Positions 23,762-55,664 of a stretch of DNA of 64,000 nt are shown in pieces (position 1 is the first letter of the stretch; every line of letters starts with the position of its first letter). A program made the translations under genes and the position numbers. Under the pieces are notes generated by a model. That model saw only the letters and a list, made by a program, of their open reading frames with translations, did not search any database and was not told the origin of the DNA. This stretch comes from Candidatus Eiseniibacteriota bacterium (GTDB lineage Bacteria; Eisenbacteria; RBG-16-71-46): contig JAWOLC010000011.1 of assembly GCA_033853925.1 (NCBI GenBank), positions 978 through 64,977 on the forward strand, in the 5' to 3' direction.

Positions 23762-23973
23762 TAAGGGAAAAGGCCCAGCCAGGGAAGACGGAGGGCCACC
23801 GCCGGACGGACCAAGCCGGCCGACGCGGGAGGGTAGAGCGGCGGGCCACCAGAGCCGCCGCAGCCCCGCGGGCCAGCCGCTCGGCGGTGGCTTTCCGGCA
23901 GGGCGAGCGCCGGGCCGCGAGAGTCCACCCAGCTTCAGCTGCTCCATTCACCGCAGCTCGAGGAGGTCGCAAC

Positions 23974-32258: not shown

Positions 32259-33283
32259 GCGCCCGCGCGAGCACGAGTCGGCGGATCCTGGCCGGGGTGG
32301 CGGCGCTGCTGCTGGCGGCCCTGCCGGCCTGGGGCCAGAGCAAGACGGGCACCACGATCGGCCAGTTCCTGCTGATCGAGCCCAGCGCGCGCATCGCCGG
32401 CATGGGGAACGCCGGGGTGGCGATCGCCGACGGCCTGGACGCGGTCTACTTCAACCCGGCGACGATCGGGCTGCTGCGGGGCTACAACGTGCAGTTCACG
32501 CACAGCGCCTGGCTGGCCGACATCCGCTTCGACTACGCGGCGGCCTCGATTCCCCTCGGCAAGTGGGGCAGCGCGGTGGCCAGCGTGACGGCCCTGAACT
32601 CCGGGGCCATGGACGTGCGCACGGTCTCGCAGCCCCTGGGCACGGGGGAGACGTTCTCCGTGTCCGACGTGGCCCTCGGGCTGGGGTACGGGCGGCAGAT
32701 CACCGACCGCTTCTCCACGGGCGCCCAGATCCAGTACGTGCAGGAGACGATCTGGCACAGCTCGCTGAGCACGGTCGTGCTCGACCTGGGCACGCTGTAC
32801 CGGATCTCGGACCGCGGGCTCAGGATCGGCGCGAGCCTGTCGCACCTGGGCACGCAGGGGCGCTTCGCGGGCCGGGATCTGAACGTCGTCTACGACAACG
32901 ACCCGAGCCGGTACGGCGACAACGGCACGCTGCCCGGCGACATGTTCACCAGCGACTTCTCGGTCCCGACGCTCTTCCGCGTGGGCCTCGGCCTGCCGTT
33001 CCAGTTCGGGCCGCGGGCGCGGCTGGACCTCGCGGCGGACGCCTTCCACCCGGCCGACAATTCCGAGGGCCTGAGCGCGGGGGCGGAGTTCCGCTACGCG
33101 CGCGTCCTCTCGCTGCGGGCCGGCTGGCAGGACGCGTTCCAGCAGGACACCGAGGTCGGCCTGACGCTGGGCGCCGGATTGCAGGGGAAGGTGGACGTGT
33201 ACGGATACCGGGTCGACTACGGTTGGGCGGATCACAGGCGGCTGGGCGGCACGCATCGCCTGACCATCCAGCTCGCGTTCTAG
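32255..33283 (+). CDS. PorV/PorQ-family (UPF0164-like) outer-membrane beta-barrel
   Basis: ATG overlaps the upstream stop (ATGA). Signal peptide. Hallmark N-terminal motif SARIAGMGNAGVAIADGLDAVYFNPA. Alternating beta-strand pattern to a C-terminal aromatic (QLAF). It is the last 343 codons of the listed 1502-aa artefact ORF. Confidence 0.75.
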   Translation: MSARASTSRRILAGVAALLLAALPAWGQSKTGTTIGQFLLIEPSARIAGMGNAGVAIADGLDAVYFNPATIGLLRGYNVQFTHSAWLADIRFDYAAASIPLGKWGSAVASVTALNSGAMDVRTVSQPLGTGETFSVSDVALGLGYGRQITDRFSTGAQIQYVQETIWHSSLSTVVLDLGTLYRISDRGLRIGASLSHLGTQGRFAGRDLNVVYDNDPSRYGDNGTLPGDMFTSDFSVPTLFRVGLGLPFQFGPRARLDLAADAFHPADNSEGLSAGAEFRYARVLSLRAGWQDAFQQDTEVGLTLGAGLQGKVDVYGYRVDYGWADHRRLGGTHRLTIQLAF

Positions 33284-33347: not shown

Positions 33348-34919
33348 ATGCGCAACTGCATCCTGGCGTTCCTCGTGCTCCTGGGCGGGGCCGCCGACGC
33401 GAGGGCTCAGAGCACGGCGGCCGTCCTGGACACGATCCAGCACGCCACCTTCGACTACTTCTGGTACGAGGCGAACGCCGCGAACGGCCTGATCAAGGAT
33501 CGCAGCACCGCCACCTCCCCGGCGAGCATCGCGGCGGTGGGCTTCGGGCTCTCGGCCATCTGCGTGGGCGTCGACCACGGCTGGATCACGCGCGAGGCGG
33601 GCCGCGACCGGGTCCTCACCACCCTCCGCACGTTCTGGTACGGCCCGCAGGGAAGCGGCGCCAGCGGCATCATCGGCTACAAGGGGCTCTTCTACCACTG
33701 GCTCGACATGAGCACCGCGACCCGCACCTGGAGCTGCGAGCTGTCCACGATCGACACGGCCCTGCTGATGGCCGGCATCCTGGACAGCAAGCAGTACTTC
33801 ACCGGCGGCGACGCGGCGGAGGACTCGATCCGGACCCTGGCGGACGCGATCTACCAGCGGGCGGACTGGGAGTTCATGCGCAACGGCGCCCAGGGGATCT
33901 ACATGGGCTGGAAGCCCGGCACGGGCTTCTCCGGCTACGGCCTCTGGCAGGGCTACAACGAGGCCATGATCCTCTACCTCCTGGCCCTCGGCTCGCCCAC
34001 GCATCCGGTGCCGGCGAGCACCTGGACGTACTGGATGAGCGGCTACCAGTGGACCACGCAGTACGGCCAGACCTACATCATCTTCCCGCCGCTCTTCGGC
34101 CACCAGTACTCGCACTGCTGGGTCGACTTCCGCACGAGCCAGGACGCCTTCATGCGCGTCAAGGGCATCACCTACTTCGAGAACTCGCGGCGGGCCACGC
34201 TGGCCCAGCGGGCCTACGCGGCGGCCAATCCCTACGGCTGGACCGGCTACAGCGACAGCCTCTGGGGGCTGACCGCCTCCGACATCAAGAACGGCTACAG
34301 CGCCCGCGGCGCGCCGCCGACGCAGAACGACGACGGCACCATCACGCCCAGCGCGCCGGGGGGCTCGATCGCCTTCGCCCCCGACGAGGTGATCCCGGTG
34401 CTGCGCAACCTGTACCTGAACTATCCCGCGGCCTGGGGCACCTACGGCTTCCGGGACGCCTTCAACCTGAGCCTCAATCCGGACTGGTACGATACGGACT
34501 TCCTCGGCATCGACGAGGGGCCGATCGTGCTGATGATCGAGAACTACCTGCACTCCTCGGTCTGGCTGCGCTTCAATCGGAACCCGGACGTCCAGCGCGG
34601 GCTCGAGCGGGCGGGCTTCACCGCCATTGCCGCGGTCGGTCCGGGCCCGGGGGCGGAGGCCGAGCTGGCCGCCTGGAGCGAGCCCAACCCGTTCACGGGC
34701 TCGGCCACCGTGCGCTTCCGCCTGCCCGCGGCGGGCCCCGTGCGTCTGGCCGTTTTCGATCTGGGCGGCCGGCGGGTCGCGACTCTGCTCGACGGGACGC
34801 GCCCTGCGGGCGAACATGCGGTGACCTGGCGGGCCGCGGGGGCGCCGAGCGGCGTGTACTTCGTCCGGCTCGAAGCGGGTGGCCGATCGGTGACGCGGCG
34901 TTGCGTGCGGCTCGAATGA
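33348..34919 (+). CDS. Secreted GH144-like (glucoamylase-like PF10091 domain; endo-beta-1,2-glucanase family) enzyme with C-terminal FlgD-Ig-like / T9SS-type sorting domain
   Basis: GGGAGAGG before ATG 33348. Signal peptide. Motifs FGHQYSHCWVDFR, FENSRRATLAQRAY, DFLGIDEGPIVLMIENY. C-terminal NPFTGSATVRFRLP...VRLAVFDLGGRRVATL...GVYFVRLEAGGRSVTRRCVRLE. Confidence 0.75.
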   Translation: MRNCILAFLVLLGGAADARAQSTAAVLDTIQHATFDYFWYEANAANGLIKDRSTATSPASIAAVGFGLSAICVGVDHGWITREAGRDRVLTTLRTFWYGPQGSGASGIIGYKGLFYHWLDMSTATRTWSCELSTIDTALLMAGILDSKQYFTGGDAAEDSIRTLADAIYQRADWEFMRNGAQGIYMGWKPGTGFSGYGLWQGYNEAMILYLLALGSPTHPVPASTWTYWMSGYQWTTQYGQTYIIFPPLFGHQYSHCWVDFRTSQDAFMRVKGITYFENSRRATLAQRAYAAANPYGWTGYSDSLWGLTASDIKNGYSARGAPPTQNDDGTITPSAPGGSIAFAPDEVIPVLRNLYLNYPAAWGTYGFRDAFNLSLNPDWYDTDFLGIDEGPIVLMIENYLHSSVWLRFNRNPDVQRGLERAGFTAIAAVGPGPGAEAELAAWSEPNPFTGSATVRFRLPAAGPVRLAVFDLGGRRVATLLDGTRPAGEHAVTWRAAGAPSGVYFVRLEAGGRSVTRRCVRLE

Positions 34920-34976
34920 GGGAGCCGGGCGGGGCAAGGCCCGCGGCGCGGCCGCGGCGCCTGGCGGAGGGATAGC

Positions 34977-36041
34977 ATGGCGACGATCCGAGACGTGGCG
35001 CGGGCGAGCAACGTGTCCATCGCCACGGTGTCGCGGGTGTTCAACCAGAGCCCGCTCGTGAGCGAGGACACGCGCCAGCGCGTGGTCGCCGCGGCGAGCC
35101 GCCTGGGCTACTGGCCCAACGGTATCGCCCGCAGCCTCATCACCAACCGCACGCACACCCTCGGGCTCCTCCTCCCGGACCTGCACGGGGAGTTCTTCTC
35201 GGAGGTCATCCACGGGGTCGACCTCAAGGCGCGGGAGAGAGGCTTCCACCTGCTCGTGTCCCGCTCCAGCTCGAGCGCCGAGGAGCTGACGGACGCGCTG
35301 CGCGCCATGCGCGGCCGGGTGGACGGCCTCATCGTCATGGCGCCGGACGTGGACGCTTCGCGGGCGCTGCGCAGCGCGGCGGGCAACGTCCCCATCGTGC
35401 TCCTGAACCCGGAGGTGGAGCTGCCGGGCTCCGACACCGTCGGGATCGACAACCTGCACGGGGCGGCGACGATCGTCCACCACCTGATCGACCTCGGCAA
35501 CCGCCGCATCGCCACGATCACGGGGCCGGGCCAGAACATCGACGCGCGCCAGCGGCTCGACGGCTATCGCGCGGCGCTGCGGGAGGCCGGCCTCGCGCCC
35601 GACCCCGACCTCGAGTTCCACGGGGACTTCACGGAGCGGTCGGGGTACGAGGCGGCCCGGGCGATTCTGCGTCAGCGCAGCGGCGCCACGGCGATCTTCG
35701 TGGCCAACGACCACATGGCCATCGGCGTGATCGGCGCGCTCCAGGAGGCGGGCATGCGGGTGCCCGACGACATCGCCGTCACGGGCTTCGACGACATCCC
35801 GATGGCGCGCTACCTGACGCCGCCGCTCACGACCATGCACGTGAACATGCTGCAGATCGGGGAGCGGGCGGTCGAGCTGCTGGTGGACCCGGAGCGGGTG
35901 GCCGGCCCTCCCGAGGGTCGGCACGAGGTGCTGCCCACGACGCTGGTCGTGCGGGAGTCGTGCGGGGCCCGCCGGCCGCGCCGCAGCGGGGGGGCGCCGG
36001 GCTGGGATCGCGGCGAGCCTCCCGCCGCGGTGCCGCGCTGA
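34977..36041 (+). CDS. LacI-family transcriptional regulator
   Basis: HTH MATIRDVARASNVSIATVSRVFN. Periplasmic-binding-protein-like sugar-binding core. Confidence 0.9.
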   Translation: MATIRDVARASNVSIATVSRVFNQSPLVSEDTRQRVVAAASRLGYWPNGIARSLITNRTHTLGLLLPDLHGEFFSEVIHGVDLKARERGFHLLVSRSSSSAEELTDALRAMRGRVDGLIVMAPDVDASRALRSAAGNVPIVLLNPEVELPGSDTVGIDNLHGAATIVHHLIDLGNRRIATITGPGQNIDARQRLDGYRAALREAGLAPDPDLEFHGDFTERSGYEAARAILRQRSGATAIFVANDHMAIGVIGALQEAGMRVPDDIAVTGFDDIPMARYLTPPLTTMHVNMLQIGERAVELLVDPERVAGPPEGRHEVLPTTLVVRESCGARRPRRSGGAPGWDRGEPPAAVPR

Positions 36042-36049
36042 AGCCGGCC

Positions 36050-37513
36050 GTGGCCCTCCGCTCGCGCACCCGTCCGGCCGCCGGCCGCCGCGTGGCGCTC
36101 GCGGCGCTCCTCGTCCTGGTCGCGGCCTTGGGCTGCCGCGACGGCTTCACGGCGCGCGGCCCGCGTGGCCCCGCCCCCTCCGGCGAGACCGCCTTCCTCG
36201 ACACGCTCGAGTTGCGCACCTTCCGCTGGTTCTGGGAGCTGAGCGATTCCCGCACGGGGCTGACGCCGGATCGCTGGCCGAGCAAGTCGTTCTCGAGCGT
36301 GGCGGCGGTGGGCTTCGCGCTCACGGCCTACCCGATCGGGGCGGAGCGCGGCTACGTGACCCGGGCGGCCGCCTGCGAGCGCACGCTGGCCACGCTCCGC
36401 TTCTTCTGGACCGCGCCCCAGGGCTCCGCGGCGCGGGGCTGCACCGGCTACCACGGCTTCTTCTACCACTTCCTCGAGCCCGTGAGCGGCCAGCGCTTCG
36501 AGCGCGTGGAGCTCTCCACGATGGACACCGCGCTCCTCCTCGCGGGGGCGCTCTTCTGCCAGTCCTACTTCGACCGCGCGGACCCGCGCGAGGCGGAGGT
36601 GCGCGCCCTGGCCGAGTCGCTCTACGCGCGCGCGGACTGGCGCTGGGCACTGGTGCGGCCGCCCATGATCGTGCACGGCTGGACCCCCGAGGAGGGCTTC
36701 CTGCCCTGGGACTGGCAGGGCATGAACGAGTCCATGCTGGTTCCCATCCTGGCGCTCGGCTCGCCCACGCACCCGGTCGAGCCCGCGGTCTGGTCCTACT
36801 GGATGGGGGGCTGCCGCTGGGGCTCGTTCCAGGGCGTGGAGCACTTCGGCTTCGCGCCGCTCTTCGGCCACCAGTTCACCCAGGTCTGGCTCGACCTGCG
36901 CGGGCTCAGGGACAGCACCCTGCGGGCGCGGGGGATCGACTGGTTCGAGAACTCTCGACGGGCCACCCTCGCCCAGCGGGCCTACTGTCTGGCCAACCCC
37001 GGCGGCTTCCGCGGCTACGGAGCCGATCTCTGGGGGCTCACCGCCTGCGACGGGCCGCTCAACGACACGGTGGCGGTGGCCGGGCGCAGGCTCCGCTTCG
37101 AGACCTACGCCGCGCGCGGGGCCGGCGTCCAGCGCGTCTCCGACGACGGCACGATCTCGCCGGCCGCGGCCGGCGGCTCGATCGCCTTCGCGCCCGAGCT
37201 GGTGATCCCCACGCTGCAGGCCATGCGCCGCACCTACGGCGAGAACCTGTTCTCGCGGTACGGCTTCGTGGACGCGCTCAATCCGACGCTGGACGTGGCG
37301 GTACCCGTGCAGCACGGGCGGGTGATCCCGGGCACCGGCTGGTTCGACACCGACTACCTGGGGATCGACCAGGGCCCGATCCTGGCCATGCTCGAGAACT
37401 GGCGCAGCGGGCTCGTGTGGCGGACCATGCGGAAGAACGCGCACGTCGTCCGCGGCCTCGTGGCCGCGGGGTTCACGGGCGGATGGCTGGACTCGCTCTC
37501 CCGGGCCCGCTGA
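36050..37513 (+). CDS. GH144-like (glucoamylase-like domain) lipoprotein, paralog of 33348..34919
   Basis: GTG start giving M-ALRSRTRPAAGRRVALAALLVLVAALGC (lipobox LGC). Same conserved blocks as the paralog (FGHQFTQVWLDLR, FENSRRATLAQRAY, DYLGIDQGPILAMLEN). Start is uncertain; the listed ATG 35960 overlaps the lacI gene. Confidence 0.7.
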   Translation: MALRSRTRPAAGRRVALAALLVLVAALGCRDGFTARGPRGPAPSGETAFLDTLELRTFRWFWELSDSRTGLTPDRWPSKSFSSVAAVGFALTAYPIGAERGYVTRAAACERTLATLRFFWTAPQGSAARGCTGYHGFFYHFLEPVSGQRFERVELSTMDTALLLAGALFCQSYFDRADPREAEVRALAESLYARADWRWALVRPPMIVHGWTPEEGFLPWDWQGMNESMLVPILALGSPTHPVEPAVWSYWMGGCRWGSFQGVEHFGFAPLFGHQFTQVWLDLRGLRDSTLRARGIDWFENSRRATLAQRAYCLANPGGFRGYGADLWGLTACDGPLNDTVAVAGRRLRFETYAARGAGVQRVSDDGTISPAAAGGSIAFAPELVIPTLQAMRRTYGENLFSRYGFVDALNPTLDVAVPVQHGRVIPGTGWFDTDYLGIDQGPILAMLENWRSGLVWRTMRKNAHVVRGLVAAGFTGGWLDSLSRAR

Positions 37514-38814
37514 CGAGCCGGGCCGCGCGGGCGCTCGCCGTGGCGGGCCTCGTGGCGCTCGCCGGCTGCCGCGGCGCCGGCGAGGCGCGGACGACCGTGC
37601 GCTTCTGGGCGATGGGGCGCGAGGGCGAGGTCGTCCAGGAGCTGGTCCGCGACTTCGAGCGCGAGAATCCCACGGTGCGCGTGATCGTCCAGCAGATGCC
37701 CTGGGACGCGGCGCACGAGAAGCTGCTCACCGCCTTCGTGGGACGCTCCACGCCCGACCTCGCCCAGCTCGGCAACACCTGGATCCCCGAGTTCGTCGCG
37801 CTGCGCGCCGTGGAGCCGCTCGGCCCCTGGCTCGCGGGCTCCCGGGCCGTGGCGGAGTCCTCGTACTTCGCCGGCATCTGGGACACCAACGTGGTGGACG
37901 GCGTGCCCTACGGCGTGCCCTGGTACGTGGACACCCGCGTGCTCTTCTACCGCCGCGACCTGCTCCGGCAGGCCGGCTGGGACTCGATCCCGGGCGGCTG
38001 GAGCGAGTGGCTGCGGGCCATGGAGGACGTGAAGCGCCTGGGCCGCGGCCGCTTCGCCATCTTCCTCCCCACGAACGAGTACACGCCCTGGATCGTGCTC
38101 GGCATGCAGGCGGGCTCGCCGCTCCTGCGCGACGGAGAGTCGCGCGGGGACTTCTCGGGACCCGAGTACCGGCGCGCCGCCGCCTTCTATCTCGAGGTGT
38201 TTCGCCGCGGGCTCGCCCCGAACGTGGCCGGGGCCACGATCGCCAACCGCTACCAGGAGTTCGAGCGCGGCACGTTCGCCATGTACATCAGCGGCCCGTG
38301 GGACGTGGGCGAGTTCGGGCGCCGGTTGTCTCCGGCCATGAAGGGGGCCTGGTTCATCGCCACGCTCCCCGGCCCCGACGGCCCGGCCAGCGGCGTCTCC
38401 TCCGCCGGCGGCTCGAGCCTCGTGCTCTTCCGCGACTCCCGCCACAAGCGCGAGGCGTGGCGCCTCGTGGAGTACCTCTCGCGGCCCGAGGTGCAGCTCC
38501 GCTTCCAGCGGCTGTGCGGGAACCTGCCCGCGCGGCTCGAGGCCTGGCGCGACTCGTCCCTGGCGAACGATCCCTTCGCCCGCGTGTTCGAGCGGCAGCT
38601 CCGGCGCGTGGTCTCGACGCCGAAGGTGCCCGAGTGGGAGAACATCTCGAAGAGCCTCCAGGACTGCGTCGAGTCCATGGTGCTCGGGCACGCGCCGCCC
38701 GATTCGGCGCTGGCGAGCCTGGATCGGCGGGTGGACCGCATCCTCGAGAAGCGGCGCTGGCTCCTGGAGCGGGAGCGGCGGCGCGTGGCGGGCGGGACGG
38801 CGGAGGCGCGATGA
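37480..38814 (+). CDS. ABC transporter sugar-binding lipoprotein (SBP family 1)
   Basis: Lipobox LVALAGC. Typical oligosaccharide-SBP sequence. The start overlaps the upstream gene by about 34 nt; an alternative GTG is at 37540. Confidence 0.8.
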   Translation, partial: RMAGLALPGPLTSRAARALAVAGLVALAGCRGAGEARTTVRFWAMGREGEVVQELVRDFERENPTVRVIVQQMPWDAAHEKLLTAFVGRSTPDLAQLGNTWIPEFVALRAVEPLGPWLAGSRAVAESSYFAGIWDTNVVDGVPYGVPWYVDTRVLFYRRDLLRQAGWDSIPGGWSEWLRAMEDVKRLGRGRFAIFLPTNEYTPWIVLGMQAGSPLLRDGESRGDFSGPEYRRAAAFYLEVFRRGLAPNVAGATIANRYQEFERGTFAMYISGPWDVGEFGRRLSPAMKGAWFIATLPGPDGPASGVSSAGGSSLVLFRDSRHKREAWRLVEYLSRPEVQLRFQRLCGNLPARLEAWRDSSLANDPFARVFERQLRRVVSTPKVPEWENISKSLQDCVESMVLGHAPPDSALASLDRRVDRILEKRRWLLERERRRVAGGTAEAR

Positions 38815-39704
38815 GGGGCGCGATCGAGCTGCGGCAGCATCGCGCGGGCTGGGCGTTCGTGGCGCCCGCGCTGGTCCTGATCGGCGTCTTCTTCTTCGTG
38901 CCGGTGCTGGCCGGACTCGTGCTCAGCTTCACCGACTTCGACATCTACGCCATCGGCCGGCCGAGCGTCGCGCGCTTCGTGGGCCTGCGCAACTACGCCG
39001 ACGTGCTGGCGAACCCGCTCTTCTGGAAGGCCCTGGGCAACACGCTCTACTTCGTGCTCCTGGGCGGACCGCTCTCGGTCGTGACCTCGCTGGTGGCGGC
39101 CCTGCTCGTCAGCTCGAAGCTCACCCGCCTGCAGGGGCTCTTCCGCTCCATCTTCTTCATGCCGGTCGTCACCACGCTCGTGGCCGTGGCGGTCGTGTGG
39201 CGCTACCTCTACCAACCCGAGTACGGGCTGGCGAACTGGGCCCTCCGGGCCTTCGGGATCCGCCCCGTGGACTGGCTGGGCGACCCGCACTGGGCCATGC
39301 TCGCCATCATCCTCATGGCCGTGTGGAAGAACTTCGGCTACAACATGCTCATCTTCGTGGCCGGGCTGCAGGGCATCCCCGAGGAGCTGTACGAGGCCGC
39401 CGAGCTGGACGGCGCCAGCCCCTGGGCGCGCTTCGTCCACATCACCCTGCCCAGCCTGGGGCCCACCTTCCTCTTCGTGGGCGTCATCACCATGCTCGGC
39501 AACTTCCAGCTCTTCGCCGAGCCCTACGTGATGACCCAGGGCGGCCCGCTCAAGGCCACGACCACGCTGGTGATGCTCATGTACGAGGAGGGCTTCCGCT
39601 GGTGGCGCATGGGAGCGGGGGCCGCCATCGCCTTCCTCCTCTTCGTCCTCATGATGGCGGGCACGCTCCTGCAGATGCGCCTGCAGCGGGAGACGCGCAG
39701 GTGA
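38811..39704 (+). CDS. ABC sugar transporter permease (MalF/UgpA-like)
   Basis: ATG overlaps the upstream stop (ATGA). EAA-type loop EAAELDGASPWARFVHITLP. Six TM segments. Confidence 0.85.
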   Translation: MRGAIELRQHRAGWAFVAPALVLIGVFFFVPVLAGLVLSFTDFDIYAIGRPSVARFVGLRNYADVLANPLFWKALGNTLYFVLLGGPLSVVTSLVAALLVSSKLTRLQGLFRSIFFMPVVTTLVAVAVVWRYLYQPEYGLANWALRAFGIRPVDWLGDPHWAMLAIILMAVWKNFGYNMLIFVAGLQGIPEELYEAAELDGASPWARFVHITLPSLGPTFLFVGVITMLGNFQLFAEPYVMTQGGPLKATTTLVMLMYEEGFRWWRMGAGAAIAFLLFVLMMAGTLLQMRLQRETRR

Positions 39705-40522
39705 GGCGCGCGCTGCCCTCCCTGCTGCTCCACGCCGTGCTCGTCGCGGGGGCGGCGCTGACCCTGGCGCCGCTGCTGTGGATGGTCTCGGCGTCGTTTA
39801 TGCCCACGGGCGAGGCGAACAGCTTCCCGCCCCGCCTGCTCCCCAGCGTCCCCACCGCGCGGCACTACGCCGAGCTCTTCACCCGGCTCGACCTGGGCCG
39901 GCACTTCGCGAACAGCGCGCTCGTCGCCGTGGCCTCGACCCTCGTCTCCCTGATCGTCAACTCGCTCGCCGGGTACGCCTTCGCCAAGCTGCGCTTCGCC
40001 GGCCGGGAGCGCACGTTCCGCGCGCTGCTCGCCGCTCTGGTCATCCCCGCCCAGGTCGGGATGCTCCCCCTCTTCCTGCTCCTCAAGGCCATGGGCCTCG
40101 TGAACACCTACGCCGGCGCGGTCGTTCCCTTCATGGCCGGGGTGTTCGGCATCTTCATGATCCGCCAGTACGCGCTGAGCATCCCCGACGACCTGCTCGA
40201 CGCCGCCCGCGTGGACGGAGCGGGGGAGCTGCGCATCTACTGGAGCGTCGTCCTGCCGGTGATCCGGCCCATCCTGGTCACCCTGGCCGTGTTCGTCTTT
40301 CTCAGCGCGTGGAACGACTTCATGTGGCCGCTCATCGTCCTCAGCGACCAGGCCAAGTACACGCTGCCGGTGGCGCTGGCGAACCTCTCGGGCGAGCACG
40401 TGCAGGACACGGAGCTGATGATGGCCGGCTCGGTCCTCACCGTGCTGCCCGTCGTCGTCCTCTTCATCGCTCTGCAGCGCGCCTACATGCGCGGCGTGAT
40501 GATGGGCAGCGTCAAGGGCTAG
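39701..40522 (+). CDS. ABC sugar transporter permease (MalG/UgpE-like)
   Basis: GTG overlaps the upstream stop (GTGA). EAA-type loop DAARVDGAGELRIYWSVVLP. Confidence 0.85.
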   Translation: MRRALPSLLLHAVLVAGAALTLAPLLWMVSASFMPTGEANSFPPRLLPSVPTARHYAELFTRLDLGRHFANSALVAVASTLVSLIVNSLAGYAFAKLRFAGRERTFRALLAALVIPAQVGMLPLFLLLKAMGLVNTYAGAVVPFMAGVFGIFMIRQYALSIPDDLLDAARVDGAGELRIYWSVVLPVIRPILVTLAVFVFLSAWNDFMWPLIVLSDQAKYTLPVALANLSGEHVQDTELMMAGSVLTVLPVVVLFIALQRAYMRGVMMGSVKG

Positions 40523-40542
40523 GCCGCCTCCGAGGATTCCCC

Positions 40543-43500
40543 GTGCTCCCGCTGCCGCTCCGGATCGCCTGGCTGCTCGGCCTCCTGGCTCTGCCCGGGG
40601 CGGCGGCGGGGGACGTCGTGGACGCCTTCGACCGGCCCGAGGCGTGGCGTGCCCTGCCTTCCGACGGCGTCGAGATGAAGGTCTCGCGGGAGGCGGGCGA
40701 GAGCGGGAGCGCGCTGCGGCTGGACTTCCGCTTCGTCAAGGGCGGCGGCTACGCCGTGCTGCACCGCGACCTGGCGCTGGAGCTGCCCGAGAACTACCGC
40801 TTCACCCTGCGGCTCCGCGGCCAGTCCCCGCCCGAGAACCTCGAGTTCAAGCTCGTCGACTCGACCGGCGCGAACGTCTGGTGGCGGAACCAGCGGGACT
40901 TCGTCTTCACGAACGAGTGGCAGACGGTCGGCGTCCGCCGCCGGCAGGTGGAGTTCGCCTGGGGGCCGGCCGGGGGCGGCGAGATCCGCCACGTCGCGGC
41001 CATCGAGATCGCGGTCACCGCCGGCAGCGGGGGCGCGGGCACGGTGTGGCTCGACCGGCTCGAGCTGACGCCGCTGCCGGTGGCGGGGGCGGCCCCGCCG
41101 CCCGTGGCGAGCGCTTCGTCGGCGCGCGCCGGCGGCGGCCCGGAGCGGGCGATCGACGGCGACACCGGGACCGCCTGGGAGAGCGATCCGGGCGACCGCG
41201 CGCCCTGGCTCGAGCTGGACCTCGGCGCCGAGCGGGAGTTCGGCGGGCTGGTGGTGGAGTGGGCGAAGGGTCGCGAGCCCGCCCGCTACCTGGTGGAGGC
41301 CTCCCCGGACGGGCGGGCCTGGACCGTCCTGCGCGCGGTGAGCGGCTGGGGGCGGTCGCGGCGCGCGCTGGACCTTCCCGAGAGCGAAGGGCGCTACCTG
41401 CGGCTGCGCGCGCTGGATCTCGGGGGCGGCGCGGGCCCCGCCGTGCGCGAGGTGAGGCTGATGCCGCTCGAGTGGGGCGCGACCCCCGAGGCCTTCTATC
41501 GGGCGGTCGCCCGGGAAGCGCCCCGCGGCTCGTATCCGCCGGGCATCCGCGGCGAGCGGTCGTGGTGGACGGTGGTGGGCGTGGACGGAGACCGCGAGAA
41601 GGGGCTCCTGAGCGCGGACGGCGCGCTGGAGACCGGGAGCGGGCAGTACTCGGTCGAGCCCTTCCTCTACGCGGACGGGGCTCTCGTCACCTGGGCGGAC
41701 GTGCGCTCCGAGACCGCGCTCGAGGACGGCTCGCTCCCGATCCCCTCGGTGCGCTGGCAGCACGGCGACCTGGCGCTGACGATCACCGCCTTCGCCGACG
41801 GCGCCCCGCGCGCGTCCACGCTGGTGGCCCGCTATCGGCTCCGGAACCTCGGCAGCATGCCCCGCCGCGCCACCCTCTTCCTCGCCTTGCGCCCCTTCCA
41901 GGTGAATCCGCCCGAGCAGTTCCTCGGCACGCGCGGCGGGACGGCCCGGGTGCGCTCGCTGCGCCGGGAGGGCTCGCTCGTCCGCGTCAACGGGGATCGC
42001 GGGCTCTCGAGCCTCACCTCGCCCGCCGGCTTCGGCGCCGCGAGCTTCGACGAGGGAGACGTCGTGGCGGACTTCCTGCGCGCGGGACGCCTGCCGCCGC
42101 GGGAGCAGGTGAGCGACTCGCTGGGCCGGGCCTCGGGCGCGCTCGCCTATGCCTTCGAGCTGGCCGGCGGCGGGGAGGACGAAGTGGACATCGAGATCCC
42201 GCTCGGGGCCGCGCCCGAACCGCGCGCCGAGGGCGGCGACGGCGGGGGAGCCGCCGAGGTCGAGCGCCGGCTCTCGGCCTGCCGGCGGAAGTGGAGCGAG
42301 ACGCTCGGGCTCGCGCGCCTCCGCCTCCCGGCGGCTCCGGAGGTGGCCCGGGCCCTCGAGGCGCAGATCGGCTGGATCCTGGTCGAGCGCGACGGCGCGG
42401 CCCTGCAGCCGGGCGTCCGCTCCTACGCGCGCACCTGGATCCGCGACGGTGCGCTCATGTCCTCGGCCCTGCTCCGCACGGGCCACGCGCAGGCGGTGAA
42501 GGAGTTCGTGGACTGGTTCGCTCCCTACCAGTACGAGGATGGCAAGGTGCCCTGCTGCGTGGACGCTCGCGGCTCGGATCCCGTCCCCGAGCACGACAGC
42601 GGCGGCGAGTTCGTCTTCCTGGCGGCCGAGTACCTGCGCTACACCGGCGACCTCGCCTCGGCGGGGCGCTGGTGGCCGGCGGTCGCGCGCGCCGCCGCCT
42701 ATCTGGATTCCCTGCGCGGGCTGCGGCGCACGGCGGCCTGGCGCACGCCCGCGACCGAGGAGTTCTTCGGCCTCCTGCCCCCCTCGATCAGCCACGAGGG
42801 CTACTCGGCGAAGCCCATGCACTCGTACTGGGACGATCTCTTCGCCCTGCGCGGATTCGCCGACGCCGCCTATCTGGCGGAGGCGCTGGGGCACGGTGAC
42901 GCGGCCCGGCACTGGGCCGCGGTGCGCGACGAGTTCGCCGGCGACCTGACGGCGTCGGTGGCCGCGGCGATGCGCCGCCATCGCCTCGACTACCTGCCGG
43001 GCTGCGCCGACCTCGGCGACTTCGACGCCACCTCGACGACGATCGCGCTCGATCCCGTGCAAGCCGAGGGCGTCCTGCCGCGGGCGGCCCTGGAGCGCAC
43101 CTTCGCGCGCTACTGGGACTTCTTCCGCGACCGCCGCGACGGGACGCAGCCGTGGGAGGTCTTCACGCCCTACGAGATGCGCAACATCGGCGCCTTCGTC
43201 CGCCTGGGCTGGAGCGAGCGGGCCGACAGCCTCCTCGAGTTCTTCCTGGGGTTCCGCCGTCCGCCCGGCTGGCAGCAATGGCCCGAGGTGATCCGCCGCG
43301 ACGAGAAGGTCCCCTACTTCGTGGGCGACCTGCCGCACGCCTGGGTGGGCTCGGACTTCGCGCGCTCGGTGCTGGACTTCTTCGCCTTCGCGCGCGCGGC
43401 GGACAGCACGCTCGTCCTCGGTGCCGGCGTGCCGGCCGCCTGGGCCCTGCATCCGGATGGCCTGGACGTGCGCGGCCTCCGCACGCCCTGGGGAGCGGTC

Positions 43501-43698
43501 GCCTACACGATGCGGCCGCGGGGCGGCGGGATCGAGATGCGGATCGAGGCCGGGCCACGGCTGCCCCCGGGCGGGATCCGGGTGCGGGCGCCCCGGGGAT
43601 TCCCGCGGGTCACGGTGGACGGGGCGCCGGTTCCGGTCGGGGAGACCGGCGAGGTCAGCGTGCGCGCCCTGCCCGCGAGGCTGCGGTTCGCTCCCTGA
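40543..43698 (+). CDS. Secreted 1051-aa glycoside hydrolase: N-terminal F5/8 type C (discoidin) domain plus six-hairpin (alpha/alpha)6 catalytic domain, glucoamylase/GH15-like
   Basis: GTG start and signal peptide VLPLPLRIAWLLGLLALPGAAAG. Discoidin block ERAIDGDTGTAWESDPGDRAPWLELDLGAEREFGGLVVEW. (alpha/alpha)6 region with ARTWIRDGALMSSALLRTGHAQAVKEFVDWF. The 255 upstream codons of the listed ORF are an out-of-frame overlap. Confidence 0.7.
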   Translation: MLPLPLRIAWLLGLLALPGAAAGDVVDAFDRPEAWRALPSDGVEMKVSREAGESGSALRLDFRFVKGGGYAVLHRDLALELPENYRFTLRLRGQSPPENLEFKLVDSTGANVWWRNQRDFVFTNEWQTVGVRRRQVEFAWGPAGGGEIRHVAAIEIAVTAGSGGAGTVWLDRLELTPLPVAGAAPPPVASASSARAGGGPERAIDGDTGTAWESDPGDRAPWLELDLGAEREFGGLVVEWAKGREPARYLVEASPDGRAWTVLRAVSGWGRSRRALDLPESEGRYLRLRALDLGGGAGPAVREVRLMPLEWGATPEAFYRAVAREAPRGSYPPGIRGERSWWTVVGVDGDREKGLLSADGALETGSGQYSVEPFLYADGALVTWADVRSETALEDGSLPIPSVRWQHGDLALTITAFADGAPRASTLVARYRLRNLGSMPRRATLFLALRPFQVNPPEQFLGTRGGTARVRSLRREGSLVRVNGDRGLSSLTSPAGFGAASFDEGDVVADFLRAGRLPPREQVSDSLGRASGALAYAFELAGGGEDEVDIEIPLGAAPEPRAEGGDGGGAAEVERRLSACRRKWSETLGLARLRLPAAPEVARALEAQIGWILVERDGAALQPGVRSYARTWIRDGALMSSALLRTGHAQAVKEFVDWFAPYQYEDGKVPCCVDARGSDPVPEHDSGGEFVFLAAEYLRYTGDLASAGRWWPAVARAAAYLDSLRGLRRTAAWRTPATEEFFGLLPPSISHEGYSAKPMHSYWDDLFALRGFADAAYLAEALGHGDAARHWAAVRDEFAGDLTASVAAAMRRHRLDYLPGCADLGDFDATSTTIALDPVQAEGVLPRAALERTFARYWDFFRDRRDGTQPWEVFTPYEMRNIGAFVRLGWSERADSLLEFFLGFRRPPGWQQWPEVIRRDEKVPYFVGDLPHAWVGSDFARSVLDFFAFARAADSTLVLGAGVPAAWALHPDGLDVRGLRTPWGAVAYTMRPRGGGIEMRIEAGPRLPPGGIRVRAPRGFPRVTVDGAPVPVGETGEVSVRALPARLRFAP

Positions 43699-43748
43699 GC
43701 CCGGCCGCGACGAGCGCCCGGGAATCCGCGCGCCCGCTCGAGGAAGGG

Positions 43749-46139
43749 TCAGAGGCGCACGAGCACGCGGTGCTCGCGACCGTCCCCGAAGGCGGGGATC
43801 GTCTCCGTCCCGTGCGGCCGGCCGTCCACCCAGATGCCCCTGCGCCCCGAGCGCATGCGAACCGTGATGCGGTACACGCTCCCGCGGAAGCTCCTCCGCA
43901 TGGTGAAGCCGCGCCAGGCCCGCGGCAGGCACGGCCGCACCAGGAGCCCGTCGTACGTGGGCCGGACGCCCAGGACCCACTCGGTGCTCACCCGGAACGT
44001 CCAGGCCGCCGAGCCCGTGTACCAGGTCCACCCGCCGCGGCCATAGCGGGACGAGTCGGGTCCGTCCACGTTGCCCGGCGTCACGTAGGGCTCCACCTCG
44101 TAGAGGTCCGGCTTCAGGCCGCGACGGATGGGGCAGAACGAGCGCAAGAGCCGCCAGGCCTGATCGCCCCGGCCGAGCCGGCACTCCGCCTGCACGGCCC
44201 ACGCCGCGGCGTGGGTGTAGAGACCTCCGTTCTCGCGGGAGCCGGGGGCGTAGCGGGTGAGGTAGCCGATCTCGGGATCCGGCTTCCGGTAGGCGGGGGC
44301 GAGGAGCAGCGGACCGAAGTCCCGGTACAGGTGCCGACGCATCGCCCGCAAGAGCCGGGGAAGGCGCCGGGGTGGCACGATCCCGTTCAGGATCGCCCAG
44401 GTCTGGGCGTTGAGGTAGATGCGCCCCTCCTGGCACCGGCGTGAGCCGATCGTCTCCCCGCTGTCCTTCGTGGCCCGCGCGTACCAGTCGCCGTCCCAGA
44501 AGTGCCGATTGAGGGCCCTCCGCATCTTGACCGCCTCGCGCCGATACCTGGCCGCCGTGCGCGCATCGGGACGCGGGAGCCGGCCCTCGAGGTCCGCCCA
44601 CTCCTCGAGCACCCCCACCAGGAAGTGCCCGAGCCAGACGCTCTCCGAGCGCAGCCGCCGCCCGATGGCGGAGAGCCCGTCGTTCCAGTCTCCCGCGCCC
44701 ATGCGGGGCACGCCGCGCGGGGAGATCCGGGCCCAGAAGGAATCGATCGCGCGGCGGCAGTGGTCGTAGAGCGTGCCGCGCACGCGCCCCGGCTTGCCGT
44801 CGCGGCCCAGGAAGGCGACGCGCTCCGCGAGGATGGCGAAGTCCGCGGTCTCGCGCAGGTAGGCGAGCGTGACGAAGGGGAGCCAGAGCAGATCGTCGTT
44901 GTACTTCTTCGTCGCGCCTTCCTCGATGAGCGGGTGCCACCAATGGTAGGTGGTCCCGTCGCGGAACTGGTGGGCGGCGTGCAGGAGGATCTGGCGCCGG
45001 GTGTGCTCGGGGGCCAGGGGGAGGAAGGCGAGGCTGTCCTGGAGCTGGTCGCGGAAGCCGTAGGCGCCGCCCGGCTGGAAGTAGCCGGTGCGCCCCCAGA
45101 CGCGCGCCGAGAGCGTCTGGTACTTGAGCCAGGTGTTGGTGAGGAGATCGAAGGCCCGGTCGGGCGTGCGGACCTCGAGGGGCGCCAGGAAGGCGTCCCA
45201 GTGCCGGCGCATCCGCTGGCGCGCGGCCTCGACGGCGGCGGGGGCGCGATACCTGCGCGACAGGCGCAGGGCGGCGGCGCGAGTCGCCGCCAGGCCCAGG
45301 GTGAAGTCCACCTCGCGCGTCTCGCCCGGGGCGAGCCGCACGGCGACCTGCAGGGAGGCGACGCCGTCCTGCCACTTGCTCGTCGAGTTGGACAGCCGCG
45401 GCCGGTCGAGGGCGGCCGGGCGGGCGAGGTCGCCATAGGGCCCGACGAACTTCTCCTTGTCGCTCTCGTGGGCGACGGGCCCGGGGCTGGCACCGTGGAA
45501 GGCGACGTGCGGCCACTCGCAGTTCCACGGCTCGCCCCGGCCGTCCTCGGCGATCGTGTTCAGGCGCTTGGTCGCGAGCAGGGCGCCCGCCGCGGGCACG
45601 TACTCGGGCTCGATGAAGAGCCGGTGGAACTCGCGGTGCGTGTCGGGAGCGGGGCCCAGGTTCCACTCGAAGTAGCTGAAGAGGTCCAGGCGCCGCCGCC
45701 GCCGCGAGCGGTTCGTGAGGCGCACGCGCCAGATCTCGAGCGGCTCGCCGGGCGGGACGAAGATCAGGTACTCGCTCTCGATCTCCTCGTTGAGCGAGAG
45801 GATGGAGGTGTAGCCGATGCCGTGGTGACATTCGTAGTGCCGGGGCCGCGCCTTGACCGGCTGCCAGGCCAGGGACCAGGCGCGGCGCGAGTCGCGGTCG
45901 CGGCAGTACAGCCACTTGCCCCAGTCGTCCCGGATCAGGTCCTGCTCCCAGCGCGTCAGGCGGTTCAAGCTGGCGTGCCTCATCCAGGAGTAGCCGCCGC
46001 CGCACTGCGAGACCACCGTGCCGTACTCGCCGGGACAGATGACGTTCACCCAGGGGCGTGGCGTGTCCGGCCGAGTGACGACGTACTCGCGGCCATCGGC
46101 GCTGAAGTGGCCGTAGCGGGTGGGGAATTGCCTGCTCAT
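43749..46139 (-). CDS. GH94-family glycoside phosphorylase (cellobiose / beta-1,2-oligoglucan phosphorylase-like), cytoplasmic
   Basis: 796 aa, no signal peptide. N-terminal beta-sandwich, (alpha/alpha)6 catalytic domain (GGAYGFRDQLQDSLA, WNDGLSA) and C-terminal jelly-roll typical of GH94. Confidence 0.8.
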   Translation of the reverse strand: MSRQFPTRYGHFSADGREYVVTRPDTPRPWVNVICPGEYGTVVSQCGGGYSWMRHASLNRLTRWEQDLIRDDWGKWLYCRDRDSRRAWSLAWQPVKARPRHYECHHGIGYTSILSLNEEIESEYLIFVPPGEPLEIWRVRLTNRSRRRRRLDLFSYFEWNLGPAPDTHREFHRLFIEPEYVPAAGALLATKRLNTIAEDGRGEPWNCEWPHVAFHGASPGPVAHESDKEKFVGPYGDLARPAALDRPRLSNSTSKWQDGVASLQVAVRLAPGETREVDFTLGLAATRAAALRLSRRYRAPAAVEAARQRMRRHWDAFLAPLEVRTPDRAFDLLTNTWLKYQTLSARVWGRTGYFQPGGAYGFRDQLQDSLAFLPLAPEHTRRQILLHAAHQFRDGTTYHWWHPLIEEGATKKYNDDLLWLPFVTLAYLRETADFAILAERVAFLGRDGKPGRVRGTLYDHCRRAIDSFWARISPRGVPRMGAGDWNDGLSAIGRRLRSESVWLGHFLVGVLEEWADLEGRLPRPDARTAARYRREAVKMRRALNRHFWDGDWYARATKDSGETIGSRRCQEGRIYLNAQTWAILNGIVPPRRLPRLLRAMRRHLYRDFGPLLLAPAYRKPDPEIGYLTRYAPGSRENGGLYTHAAAWAVQAECRLGRGDQAWRLLRSFCPIRRGLKPDLYEVEPYVTPGNVDGPDSSRYGRGGWTWYTGSAAWTFRVSTEWVLGVRPTYDGLLVRPCLPRAWRGFTMRRSFRGSVYRITVRMRSGRRGIWVDGRPHGTETIPAFGDGREHRVLVRL

Positions 46140-46277: not shown

Positions 46278-47114
46278 CTACCGATACAGGGTCTTCAGCT
46301 TGCCCCAGGTCGTGCTCGTGGTCGGCGTGGCCTGCTCGCCCAGGTAGCCGATGTCCGACCAGGTGGTGGTGATGTCGTACGCAGCGCCGCCGTTGCCGTT
46401 GGGAAGCTGGAAGTAGCCGCCCACGCGCGTGGGATACAGCTCGCCCCACTGGCCGTGCGGCGGATCCTCGTTCGGGTTCCCCTGGTCGAAGGGCAGCAGA
46501 CCGCTGGTGTACACGTTGCCCAGGTAGGAGATGGTGTACTGGATGGTCGCCGGGTCGGCCTGGCTCAGCGTATGGGGATCGTAGTCGATCTCCATGTAGA
46601 TCGGGTTGCCGGCCGTGTAGGTGACACCGTGGCTCACGGTGAAGCTGTAGAACGGGAGCCGTCCGCCGAAGCAGGCGATCTCGCCATTCCCGTTGGCCCG
46701 CACCATGAACCGGCCGTCGACGTCCAAGGACCACCAGGGCGAGAGGCGCAAGCCGGCCTCGGCCTGCGCGCCCGAGCCGTTGATCGTGACCGTGGCCCAG
46801 TACTTGTAGTGGCTGCAGTTCTCGAAGACGGCGGGCGTGAGGCCGCCATCCTCCGAGAAGCTCCACACGTGCAGGTTCGCCCAGCCCACGCAGCCGTCGC
46901 CCGTGTCGCGGATCCAGACCTGGCTGGGATAGTTGTCGAAGAACGACACATCGGAACCCGGGCAGTCGTTGAAGACGCGCGTGGCGATGACCGCGCCATT
47001 CGGCGCCGGGGTGTGGACGGGCGACGTGCAGTCGCGCCCGTCGGCGGCGAAGGCGAGGCCCGCGAACAGAACGGCCGCGAACGCCAAGAGAGTGGAGTAG
47101 CAGAGACGCTTCAT
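46278..47114 (-). CDS. Secreted Cys-rich protein of unknown function (278 aa)
   Basis: AAGGAGG 9 nt upstream of the ATG. Signal peptide MKRLCYSTLLAFAAVLFAGLAFAA. Eight Cys residues. Ends ...TWGKLKTLYR. Somewhat lower GC than neighbouring genes. Confidence 0.65.
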   Translation of the reverse strand: MKRLCYSTLLAFAAVLFAGLAFAADGRDCTSPVHTPAPNGAVIATRVFNDCPGSDVSFFDNYPSQVWIRDTGDGCVGWANLHVWSFSEDGGLTPAVFENCSHYKYWATVTINGSGAQAEAGLRLSPWWSLDVDGRFMVRANGNGEIACFGGRLPFYSFTVSHGVTYTAGNPIYMEIDYDPHTLSQADPATIQYTISYLGNVYTSGLLPFDQGNPNEDPPHGQWGELYPTRVGGYFQLPNGNGGAAYDITTTWSDIGYLGEQATPTTSTTWGKLKTLYR

Positions 47115-47355: not shown

Positions 47356-47369
47356 TGTAAACGTTTACA
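47356..47369. promoter_or_regulatory. Perfect 14-bp LacI/CcpA-type operator palindrome TGTAAACGTTTACA (central CG)
   Basis: Exact self-complement. Matches the LacI-family consensus TGnAAnCGnTTnCA. Lies in a 715-bp intergenic region, 242 bp upstream of the minus-strand gene start (47114) and 460 bp upstream of 47829. Confidence 0.55.
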
Positions 47370-55518: not shown

Positions 55519-55664
55519 CTCCGGGTTCCGGACGACGCCGGGAATGTGCGCCGGCGCCTCGGCGAAGGCAAGGCGGCGGCACGTTTGCCGAAAGGGCGCG
55601 GCTTCCCTAGTGTGCTGCCGGCGCGCTCGTTCCCGCCTCGGCGGAGCCCGGAGGAGGATGGCCC

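Follow-up and report, generated by a model that had tools for sequence, protein, structure and literature searches.

Which polysaccharide is taken apart by the carbohydrate genes in the middle of contig JAWOLC010000011.1, and is it the cell's own product or that of other organisms? The contig belongs to assembly GCA_033853925.1, from a diderm bacterium related most closely to Candidatus Eisenbacteria, and the whole stretch of 64,000 nucleotides that was analysed is referred to here as the window. A preliminary description had placed a candidate LacI-controlled locus for the use of β-1,2-glucan or a related β-glucan at positions 33348-46139. In Brucella, Agrobacterium, rhizobia and Xanthomonas, β-1,2-glucans serve as factors in virulence, symbiosis and osmoprotection; their turnover in soil and on hosts is only partly known, and new β-1,2-glucan enzyme families have been found mainly through gene-cluster mining. 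The evidence given below indicates, with a probability of about 0.8, that 23.75-50.25 kb of the window is a LacI-repressed locus for scavenging linear or cyclic β-1,2-glucans made by other bacteria.

The substrate is indicated by two glycoside hydrolase family 144 (GH144) proteins, designated A and C (Table 1). Both had been called GH144-like paralogues, and both matched PF10091 above its Pfam cut-off of 27 bits (A, 6.9e-79 and 264.9 bits; C, 1.9e-76 and 256.9 bits). Among PDB sequences, XcSGL (8xul) was matched at 6.1e-110 by A and at 1e-159 by C, and CpSGL (5gzh) at 6.5e-50 and 7.3e-37, respectively. Identities were 52% for C and XcSGL, 49% for A and XcSGL, and 48% for A and C. The 8xul protein is XCC2207, the GH144 enzyme of Xanthomonas campestris, which is a biochemically proven β-1,2-glucanase and was crystallised with the sophoro-oligosaccharide Sop7 (PMC12102758). 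Every characterised member of GH144 has β-1,2-glucans or their oligosaccharides as substrate (PMC12102758, PMC8861115). The SGL clan's defining residues in XcSGL are the general acid E239, F286 and Y367 (PMC12102758), and the alignment places E205, F250 and Y317 of A and E227, F272 and Y353 of C at these positions, with the numbering offset to XcSGL fixed by the Gln found at the Glu239 position in the crystal sequence. An acidic pair in a V-E-L-S-x-x-D-T-A-L-L helix is also kept (E131/D136 in A, E154/D159 in C).

The division of the pair into one protein with a C-terminal sorting domain (CTD) and one lipoprotein was borne out. GH144 A carries a CTD of the type IX secretion system (T9SS; TIGR04183, 30.9 bits against an NCBIfam cut-off of 23) and is predicted to be a secreted or surface enzyme, while C has an Arg-rich signal peptide ending in a lipobox-like A-L-G-C motif with its Cys. 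Two surface loops of about 13-14 residues each, common to C and XcSGL, are missing from A, and their loss may reflect a different substrate length or endo/exo preference.

The solute-binding protein of the ATP-binding cassette (ABC) importer has as its best PDB match 3uor, a Xanthomonas sugar-binding protein (5.3e-136), followed by Lin1841 of Listeria (5ysb, 2.5e-68), which binds Sop3-5 (cited in PMC8861115 and PMC12369401). Downstream, a cytoplasmic GH35 protein is closest among PDB sequences to IaSGT (7vkw, 3.1e-102), then to GlmA (1.4e-72), with β-galactosidases at 1e-21 or weaker. IaSGT is the β-1,2-glucosyltransferase of the Ignavibacterium album SGL cluster (PMC8861115). CNEIG and AELQTG motifs in the window protein match the IaSGT E176 and E343 sites, whose motifs, CNEIG and AE(L/F)Q, were deduced from mutagenesis primers in the supplement of the IaSGT paper. 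With IaSGT as its nearest PDB match and both catalytic Glu residues kept, the GH35 protein is predicted to be an IaSGT-type transferase. Homologues were found in four related loci (L001, L018, L082 and L086).

The remaining enzyme, H, had been described as a cytoplasmic GH94 protein on the opposite strand, and this was confirmed: PF17167 (2.4e-107, 360 bits) and PF06165 (1.1e-80, 271 bits) were both matched, no signal peptide is present, and a signal-peptide-like N-terminus occurs in 2 of 120 homologues. It had also been taken for a β-1,2-oligoglucan phosphorylase. H probably falls in a group near the phosphorylase domain of cyclic β-1,2-glucan synthase (CGS), and it lies outside the clade of characterised 1,2-β-oligoglucan phosphorylases (SOGP; Lin1839/LpSOGP, EC 2.4.1.333), since LpSOGP (5h3z) was matched only at E = 5.7e-5 (24 bits, 150 residues). 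The strongest PDB matches were the C-terminal GH94 domain of A. tumefaciens CGS (3.2e-138) and C. thermocellum cellobiose phosphorylase (CtCBP; 3.5e-129 over the full length of H). This ranking thus leaves H outside the SOGP clade, and by itself does not settle whether H is CGS-like or cellobiose phosphorylase-like.

A search of H against 1.84 billion cluster representatives bears on this choice. The five closest clusters comprise proteins of about 750-850 aa with 44-49% identity. Beyond them, the top 150 matches listed were mostly C-terminal domains of proteins of 2800-2950 aa, the CGS architecture, or of 1150-1400 aa, and within these 150 matches the score level of cellobiose phosphorylase-like proteins was not reached. 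Per-domain scores to H were 470-575 bits for CGS-type domains versus 436 for CtCBP. In a neighbour-joining tree of GH94 sequences (100 bootstraps, distances computed with custom code), CtCBP sat away from all others on the longest branch (0.94), and H was placed in a stand-alone group of about 750-850 aa beside the CGS-type group, with 93-100 support for the inner clades around H. Five acceptor-side positions are Y, R, G, A and G in H and E, K, A, N and C in CtCBP, and with a single exception the other stand-alone and CGS-type sequences in the comparison have the Tyr/Arg/Gly/Ala/Gly signature as well. Identification of H as a cellobiose or chitobiose phosphorylase was rejected on the lower CtCBP score, the tree position and these five residues. 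H keeps the RD and QD motifs, the Asp of DWND, the His and the Thr-Gly; going by cellobiose phosphorylase structures, this Asp is presumably catalytic, and the His and Thr-Gly presumably bind phosphate. The GH94 domain of CGS controls β-1,2-glucan length in a phosphate-dependent manner, by phosphorolysis (PMC10901819). These comparisons suggest that H is a member of an uncharacterised stand-alone GH94 group nearest to the CGS phosphorylase domain, and a β-1,2-oligoglucan (sophoro-oligosaccharide) phosphorylase is the predicted activity.

Putative regulatory sites connect these genes. The LacI repressor had been placed after both GH144 genes; it is present, but its gene lies between them. A perfect LacI-type palindrome, TGTAAACGTTTACA, lies in the gap from which the H operon and the GH35 gene diverge. 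When the 64 kb were scanned for it with up to three mismatches, two matches were obtained versus 0.03 expected, the second being TGTAACCGTTTTCA, with two mismatches, upstream of the plus-strand genes. Exact matches to TGTAANCGNTTACA numbered 25 in 82 related loci: 20 were located 35-124 bp upstream of a LacI gene, two upstream of GH94 genes and three upstream of a gene for a 278-aa protein that heads a GH94 string in Eisenbacteria (L001, L002 and L018). Counting these three, the motif precedes LacI or GH94 genes in 21 loci (18 besides them). The presence of operators at LacI, at both types of GH94 gene and at the outer-membrane module points to a single regulon, presumably through LacI binding. 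Tandem palindromes 22 or 52 bp apart were seen just upstream of LacI in several Proteobacteria and Acidobacteriota loci (Duganella sp. 1411, L075, at 1267-1280 and 1319-1332; also L058, L073 and L074), which suggests cooperative binding or autoregulation. A scan for sigma-70 promoters and terminators gave nothing useful in DNA of 73% GC.

The proposal of β-1,2-glucan utilisation under LacI control is supported by these results, both GH144 proteins matching PF10091 and H falling outside the cellobiose and cellodextrin phosphorylases. Several points weigh against it. The A. tumefaciens CGS domain scored 420.6 bits against H, slightly below CtCBP (433). Monophyly of the stand-alone GH94 group was recovered in only 48 of 100 bootstraps, in a tree with a single cellobiose phosphorylase as outgroup, and the roles given to the cellobiose phosphorylase positions (E649, K658, N667, H666 and T731) are assumed from the Cellvibrio and Cellulomonas literature. 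Neither an ABC ATPase nor a β-glucosidase (GH1 or GH3) was found in the 64-kb window, so that the pathway is incomplete as encoded; a MalK ATPase and a GH1 β-glucosidase are common in related loci, and the importer ATPase is presumably shared and encoded elsewhere. A further exported protein, G, owes its proposed role to gene linkage alone, and the activities of the locus enzymes, as well as those of the H and G clades, are sequence-based predictions.

The pathway proposed for scavenging would begin at the cell surface, where the T9SS-exported GH144 A may cut the polymer while a T9SS-anchored protein with tandem CBM9-like modules holds it. Fragments would be imported by the TonB-dependent receptor (TBDR) and trimmed in the periplasm to sophoro-oligosaccharides by the lipoprotein GH144 C. 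Exported G would act on the fragments too, at best guess as an inverting hydrolase or an exo-acting trimming enzyme; in the former case it would remove a structure that GH144 cannot handle. The Lin1841-like binding protein and the two permeases, served by an ATPase encoded elsewhere, would import Sop(n). In the cytoplasm, H would phosphorolyse Sop(n) to glucose-1-phosphate and shorter sugars, and the IaSGT-like GH35 protein would transfer or dispose of the remaining sophorose units. LacI may bind TGTAAACGTTTACA-type palindromes at 23748 and 47356 and be released by an oligosaccharide effector.

What, then, is G? This exported protein had been described as a secreted discoidin-(α/α)6 protein, possibly from an uncharacterised family. 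Signal peptide, F5/8 type C domain and, in an AlphaFold model, the barrel were all found (pLDDT 87.6, pTM 0.84). The model contains a β-sandwich (24-177), the discoidin domain (188-307), a β-supersandwich (340-553), the (α/α)6 barrel (568-947) and a second β-sandwich (948-1050). Foldseek returned GH15 dextran dextrinase and glucodextranase first, with probability 1.0 to GH15, GH94 and GH116 at 11-14% identity; later matches, in the same identity range, were GH94 phosphorylases, the exo-β-D-arabinanase ExoMA2, GH116, GH78 and GH65. G resembles the GH15 glucodextranase and dextran dextrinase, as well as GH94, in its supersandwich, barrel and C-terminal β-sandwich, and differs from GH15 and GH94 enzymes in having two additional N-terminal carbohydrate-binding module (CBM)-like domains and a signal peptide.

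At the level of sequence, F5_F8_type_C was the only Pfam family matched, and no Pfam or NCBIfam glycosidase model was above threshold, in keeping with the suspicion of an uncharacterised family. Below threshold were Glyco_hydro_15 (E = 0.098, 12.0 versus 22 bits), Bac_rhamnosid6H (E = 0.1, 12.3 versus 24.5 bits) and TIGR01577 (19.9 bits, cut-off 820), and PDB sequence matches covered CBM32 modules only. Among 35 members of the G family, sub-threshold matches were to Bac_rhamnosid6H in 32, GH15 in 16 and GDE_C in 14, which places G in the six-hairpin superfamily. By its modelled fold G is probably glycosidase-like, of the clan-L/Q type, and membership of GH15, GH78, GH94 or GH116 was not found. 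More than 1890 homologues were retrieved; the best 120 are full-length with 52-72% identity, and 112 of these 120 have a signal-peptide-like N-terminus. Named homologues are called 'hypothetical' or 'discoidin domain-containing', and one JGI name adds a rhamnosidase six-hairpin domain. No characterisation was found in the literature searched, including that on G-like proteins with GH144, on 3UOR and on the Xanthomonas XCC2202-2209 neighbours; for these neighbours the one finding was that XCC2208 is a TonB receptor.

Alignment of G with an alignment of H-clade GH94 proteins (hhalign, 93.5% probability over 437 columns) places W-I-R634-D635 of G at the R-D sugar-binding motif of GH94, with W-x-R-D shared. 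The phosphate-binding His of GH94 falls on Pro876 of G, in an invariant T-P-Y-E878 motif, the phosphate-binding Thr is deleted, and the region of the GH94 catalytic Asp aligns five residues before the invariant Glu752. Invariant barrel residues include W632, R634, E683, D685, E752, D764, D765, E878 and D929, and D635 is nearly invariant. A phosphorylase was considered and rejected for G, which is exported and lacks the phosphate-binding His and Thr. The alignment is more consistent with an exported hydrolase or transglycosylase in which Glu752 and Glu878 are candidate catalytic residues.

The genomic context of G was surveyed by a scan with the alignment of its homologues in one genome per species, which found at least 598 stretches with a relative; 80 loci were kept and compared with the window proteins by tblastn. 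These loci come from Eisenbacteria, Krumholzibacteria, Gemmatimonadota, Acidobacteriota, Fibrobacter, Binatia, Zhuqueibacter and the cultured Duganella sp. 1411, and the nearest are those of Eisenbacteria (65-82% amino-acid identity). Of the 69 loci with enough flank, 64 have a permease gene immediately upstream of G. The order GH144-binding protein-permease-permease-G, with the C-type GH144, was found within 5.2 kb on one strand in 34 of 47 loci; the 13 exceptions mostly reflect slightly wider spacing, insertions, opposite orientation of the locus or a GH144 gene cut at the locus edge. This order occurs in Eisenbacteria, Krumholzibacteria, Gemmatimonadota, Acidobacteriota, Fibrobacter, Binatia, Duganella and Xanthomonas. 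A GH94 gene was located near G in 32 loci, always one per locus, with 11 of the H type and 21 of the long CGS type and never both, a pattern expected of two forms with the same job.

Individual loci illustrate the range. In a metagenome-assembled genome labelled Udaeobacter the gene order of the window is repeated exactly. Duganella carries LacI, TBDR, GH144, the binding protein, two permeases, G, GH1, a 1264-aa GH94 protein (837 bits to CGS versus 289 to cellobiose phosphorylase) and MalK. H-type GH94 genes adjoin GH144 or G in L081, L082, L085 and L086. They accompany GH144, GH2, GH35 and G on an Elusimicrobiota contig and GH144, ABC genes and GH35 on another contig. On L085, a Logan contig, a single strand encodes LacI, a CBM9/CTD protein, a TBDR, an unassigned 1098-aa protein, PorV, an H-type GH94 protein, GH144-CTD, GH144, GH43 and G. 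Croceibacterium has GH3, TBDR, GH144 and G with no ABC system. A gene for a GH43-discoidin fusion and GH2-type genes adjoin G in some loci (L085, 15501-17225 and 20418-22391; L082, 293-2437); these neighbours hint at a natural substrate that, in some lineages, may bear decorations other than glucose.

From fold, residues and linkage it is proposed, at slightly less than even odds, that G represents a new glycoside hydrolase family of exported hydrolytic enzymes, related to the six-hairpin enzymes of GH94 and GH15, that is the standard partner of GH144 in the degradation of β-1,2-glucan, and that the H clade is a third, stand-alone type of β-1,2-oligoglucan phosphorylase. A candidate substrate for such a G family is a structure beyond the reach of endo-β-1,2-glucanase plus β-glucosidase, for example branched or substituted periplasmic glucans. 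CpSGL and β-glucosidase leave a 'non-degradable glucopentaose' from α-1,6-cyclised β-1,2-glucans (bioRxiv 10.1101/2025.04.21.649730), so there is one natural structure, at the least, for which a further enzyme is required. That G is the enzyme acting on this α-1,6-linked glucopentaose is a speculation and an unlikely one. Less probable still is a non-enzymatic role, in which G, as a large protein that binds glycans or serves as a scaffold, would pass oligosaccharides on to the ABC importer. Such a role would fit the two CBM-like domains, the lack of a catalytic Pfam family above threshold and the regular position of the gene directly after the permeases. It would not account for the many invariant acidic and aromatic residues in the barrel or for the retention of the RD sugar-binding motif of GH94- and GH15-type enzymes, and in Croceibacterium G follows GH144 in the absence of any ABC transporter.

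Table 1. Genes and operator-like sites of the proposed β-1,2-glucan locus, in window coordinates
Feature	Position	Strand	Basis or remark
LacI-type operator-like palindrome TGTAACCGTTTTCA	23748..23761	none	210 bp upstream of first gene of plus-strand run
Exported 635-aa protein, tandem CBM9-like β-sandwiches and T9SS type A sorting domain	23971..25878	+	TIGR04183, structure model
TonB-dependent outer-membrane receptor (TBDR), N-terminal CarboxypepD_reg domain	25973..28654	+	Pfam
Exported 1197-aa protein, CTD-like C-terminus	28665..32258	+	Signal peptide; resemblance to PorZ CTD
PorV/PorQ-family outer-membrane protein	32255..33283	+	NF033709, 182.6 bits versus cut-off 90 (NCBIfam); ATGA start overlap
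GH144 endo-β-1,2-glucanase homologue (A), Sec signal peptide and T9SS type A CTD	33348..34919	+	PF10091
LacI-family repressor	34977..36041	+	Pfam LacI helix-turn-helix and Peripla_BP_3
GH144 endo-β-1,2-glucanase homologue (C), XcSGL (XCC2207) orthologue, predicted periplasm-facing lipoprotein	36050..37513	+	PF10091
Lipoprotein solute-binding protein, probable CUT1-type sugar ABC importer	37483..38814	+	SBP_bac_1 (Pfam), lipobox L-A-G-C
ABC permease 1	38811..39704	+	BPD_transp_1; ATGA overlap with binding-protein gene
ABC permease 2	39701..40522	+	BPD_transp_1; GTGA overlap
G, exported 1051-aa protein, discoidin/CBM32-like domain and (α/α)6 barrel, glycosidase-like	40543..43698	+	Signal peptide, F5_F8_type_C, AlphaFold
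H, cytoplasmic stand-alone GH94 protein, 796 aa, probable CGS-like group	43749..46139	-	Pfam GH94 domains
Exported 278-aa protein	46278..47114	-	Upstream of H, same strand; ends ...TTSTTWGKLKTLYR
Perfect LacI-type operator palindrome TGTAAACGTTTACA	47356..47369	none	Divergent intergenic region, H operon versus GH35 gene
Cytoplasmic GH35 protein, IaSGT homologue	47829..50252	+	Glyco_hydro_35, GLMA_2nd (Pfam)

How far does the locus extend? At about 73% GC the raw lists of open reading frames were rich in artefacts, and frames and strands were fixed with plots of third-position GC (GC3); start codons and translations were then inspected and Pfam was run on the resulting proteins. Between 23.7 and 50.3 kb there are eleven plus-strand genes in a row, two minus-strand genes and one further plus-strand gene. 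Most junctions in the plus-strand run are short gaps or overlaps, the latter read from the sequence letters as ATGA at 32255 and 38811 and GTGA at 39701, and the coupling of the permease genes that had been reported for the three-gene sugar importer was thereby confirmed. Flanking genes encode kinases, peptidases, two-component sensors and oxidoreductases, and no link to carbohydrates was seen among them. The functional unit is thus taken to be about 23748-50252, about twice as long as the 33348-46139 locus first described and extending beyond it on both sides. A large M14 carboxypeptidase-like gene (52858-55671, minus strand) lies downstream; an M14 peptidase also flanks the GH144-G pair of Croceibacterium, which is probably a coincidence.

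The newly included genes form an outer-membrane front end. The 635-aa protein at its head passed TIGR04183 (34.3 bits against the NCBIfam cut-off of 23) and many of its homologues carry PF06452 (CBM9_1); its model (pLDDT 85.6) is closest among PDB folds to the CBM9 modules 7nwn and 1i82 (TM-score 0.64-0.70 on target). Homologues adjoin LacI or TBDR genes in at least nine related loci, and the product is a candidate surface glycan-binding protein. The TBDR matches TonB_dep_Rec_b-barrel, Plug and CarbopepD_reg_2 in Pfam. Between it and the PorV-like gene, whose start overlaps the preceding stop, is the gene for the 1197-aa protein. This protein has a signal peptide and matches no Pfam family, its sole recognisable domain being the CTD-like C-terminus, in which 110 aa resemble the PorZ CTD; by gene position it could be a functional analogue of SusD. 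The TBDR gene order is repeated in L009, L031 and L085, where homologues of the 1197-aa protein again follow the receptor. As a whole, the module of CBM9-like protein, TBDR, unassigned exported protein and PorV adjoins the LacI gene of the cassette in at least nine other loci. Although a TBDR is present, no SusD-family match was detected by Pfam among the locus proteins, which separates the locus from SusC/SusD polysaccharide utilisation loci of the Bacteroidota type; its architecture matches the broader 'CUT locus' of TBDR, carbohydrate-active enzyme, inner-membrane transporter and regulator (PMC1790865). The two TIGR04183 passes, in GH144 A and the CBM9-like protein, together with the PorV/PorQ-family gene predict T9SS type A cargo. 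A pairing of β-1,2-glucan catabolism with T9SS export had been thought unusual; it is no oddity here, as related Eisenbacteria loci carry the same CTD-tagged genes. On the minus strand, the 278-aa protein encoded upstream of H matches no Pfam or NCBIfam family; its gene is downstream of the LacI operator, and homologues with 44-59% identity adjoin GH94 in L001, L002, L018 and L010.

This front end bears on whether the glucan is foreign. The locus might serve a non-nutritional purpose, the remodelling or recycling of the cell's own periplasmic β-1,2-glucans (osmoregulated periplasmic glucan or cyclic glucan turnover), as the Xanthomonas cassette possibly does. Cyclic β-1,2-glucan is produced by Xanthomonas itself, which has this cassette too, and each of GH144 C, G and the binding protein is either periplasmic or exported. 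Against this, the T9SS-tagged GH144, the CBM9-like protein presumed to be at the surface and the TBDR suggest that the polymer is taken from outside, LacI-type repression with induction by substrate is a typical trait of loci for catabolism, and no glucan synthase (CGS, OpgH or GH186) was found among the window proteins. Recycling is accordingly given little credence, and scavenging of glucans from other bacteria is preferred. A locus for β-1,4- or β-1,3-glucans (cellodextrin, laminarin) with H as a cellobiose phosphorylase is very improbable: JGI names many H homologues 'cellobiose phosphorylase', CtCBP aligns along all of H with the A. tumefaciens CGS domain not clearly better, and some G homologues have a CBM11-like match, but the known GH144 activities, the acceptor-side residues that H shares with the CGS type, the higher scores of CGS-type domains and the Sop3-5-binding relative of the binding protein all speak for β-1,2-glucan, and no cellulase or laminarinase family was found among the window proteins.

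Comparison with published systems shows the window to be a further member of a known locus type. The combination of GH144 with a GH94 β-1,2-oligoglucan phosphorylase and an ABC importer under LacI had been cited as its known logic; this is better exemplified by the I. album SGL cluster (PMC8861115) and by the XCC2207 cassette of Xanthomonas than by a system of GH144 with SOGP. Among published systems the I. album cluster, IALB_1177-1187 (Kobayashi et al. 2022, PMC8861115), comes nearest; like the window it has two GH144 proteins, a TonB-dependent transporter, an ABC importer whose binding protein is Lin1841-like, a stand-alone GH94 protein, described there as homologous to the CGS C-terminal phosphorylase domain, the GH35 protein IaSGT and no dedicated β-glucosidase. 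IaSGT is the sole characterised member of that cluster (PMC8861115). Features of the window that go beyond the published text on it are T9SS-tagged proteins, a PorV-like gene, LacI with identifiable operators, and G.

The nearest characterised enzyme is XcSGL, from the Xanthomonas TonB-dependent 'CUT locus' (PMC12102758; PMC1790865). In Xanthomonas sacchari, LacI, TBDR, GH144 (annotated as a 'glucoamylase family protein'), the binding protein, two permeases and G follow the order of the window, but unlike the window the Xanthomonas cassette lacks a second, T9SS-tagged GH144, a neighbouring H-type GH94 and a GH35. The X. sacchari G (L084, NZ_CP010410.1, 12001-14895) is unannotated and matches in three pieces, and may be a pseudogene. 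The NZ_CP010410.1 record, of 508 kb, is labelled a plasmid, yet zwf, pgl, glk and edd stand beside the cassette. Clusters with SOGP in Listeria innocua (lin1838-1843) and Lachnoclostridium combine GH94 SOGP, GH3 and a Sop(n) ABC importer. They share with the window a cytoplasmic GH94 and an ABC importer, with Lin1841 homologous to the window binding protein (PMC8861115), whereas the SOGP-clade GH94 proteins, of about 1100 aa, are marginally similar to H, and these Gram-positive clusters are without GH144, an outer-membrane module or G. The GH94 domain of CGS/NdvB (PMC10901819) represents the nearest large sequence group to H, and the two agree in their active-site signature at every position compared. 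As part of a membrane synthase of about 2800 aa, the CGS domain acts in chain-length control, whereas H, of 796 aa, is free in the cytoplasm and encoded in a catabolic locus. In the literature searched, three features were undescribed: the linkage of G with GH144, the mutual exclusion of H-type and CGS-type GH94 genes, and the T9SS/CBM9/TBDR/PorV front end with a shared LacI operator.

For uncultured Eisenbacteria-like bacteria, the locus would thus represent a complete β-1,2-glucan pathway from the outer membrane to the cytoplasm. Two of its components are widespread and open to testing, namely G, a six-hairpin protein whose linkage to GH144 spans at least six phyla and which occurs in at least 598 species genomes, and H, a representative of stand-alone, probably CGS-like GH94 proteins. 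Since Duganella sp. 1411 and Xanthomonas, both culturable, carry the cassette, genetics and biochemistry are feasible.

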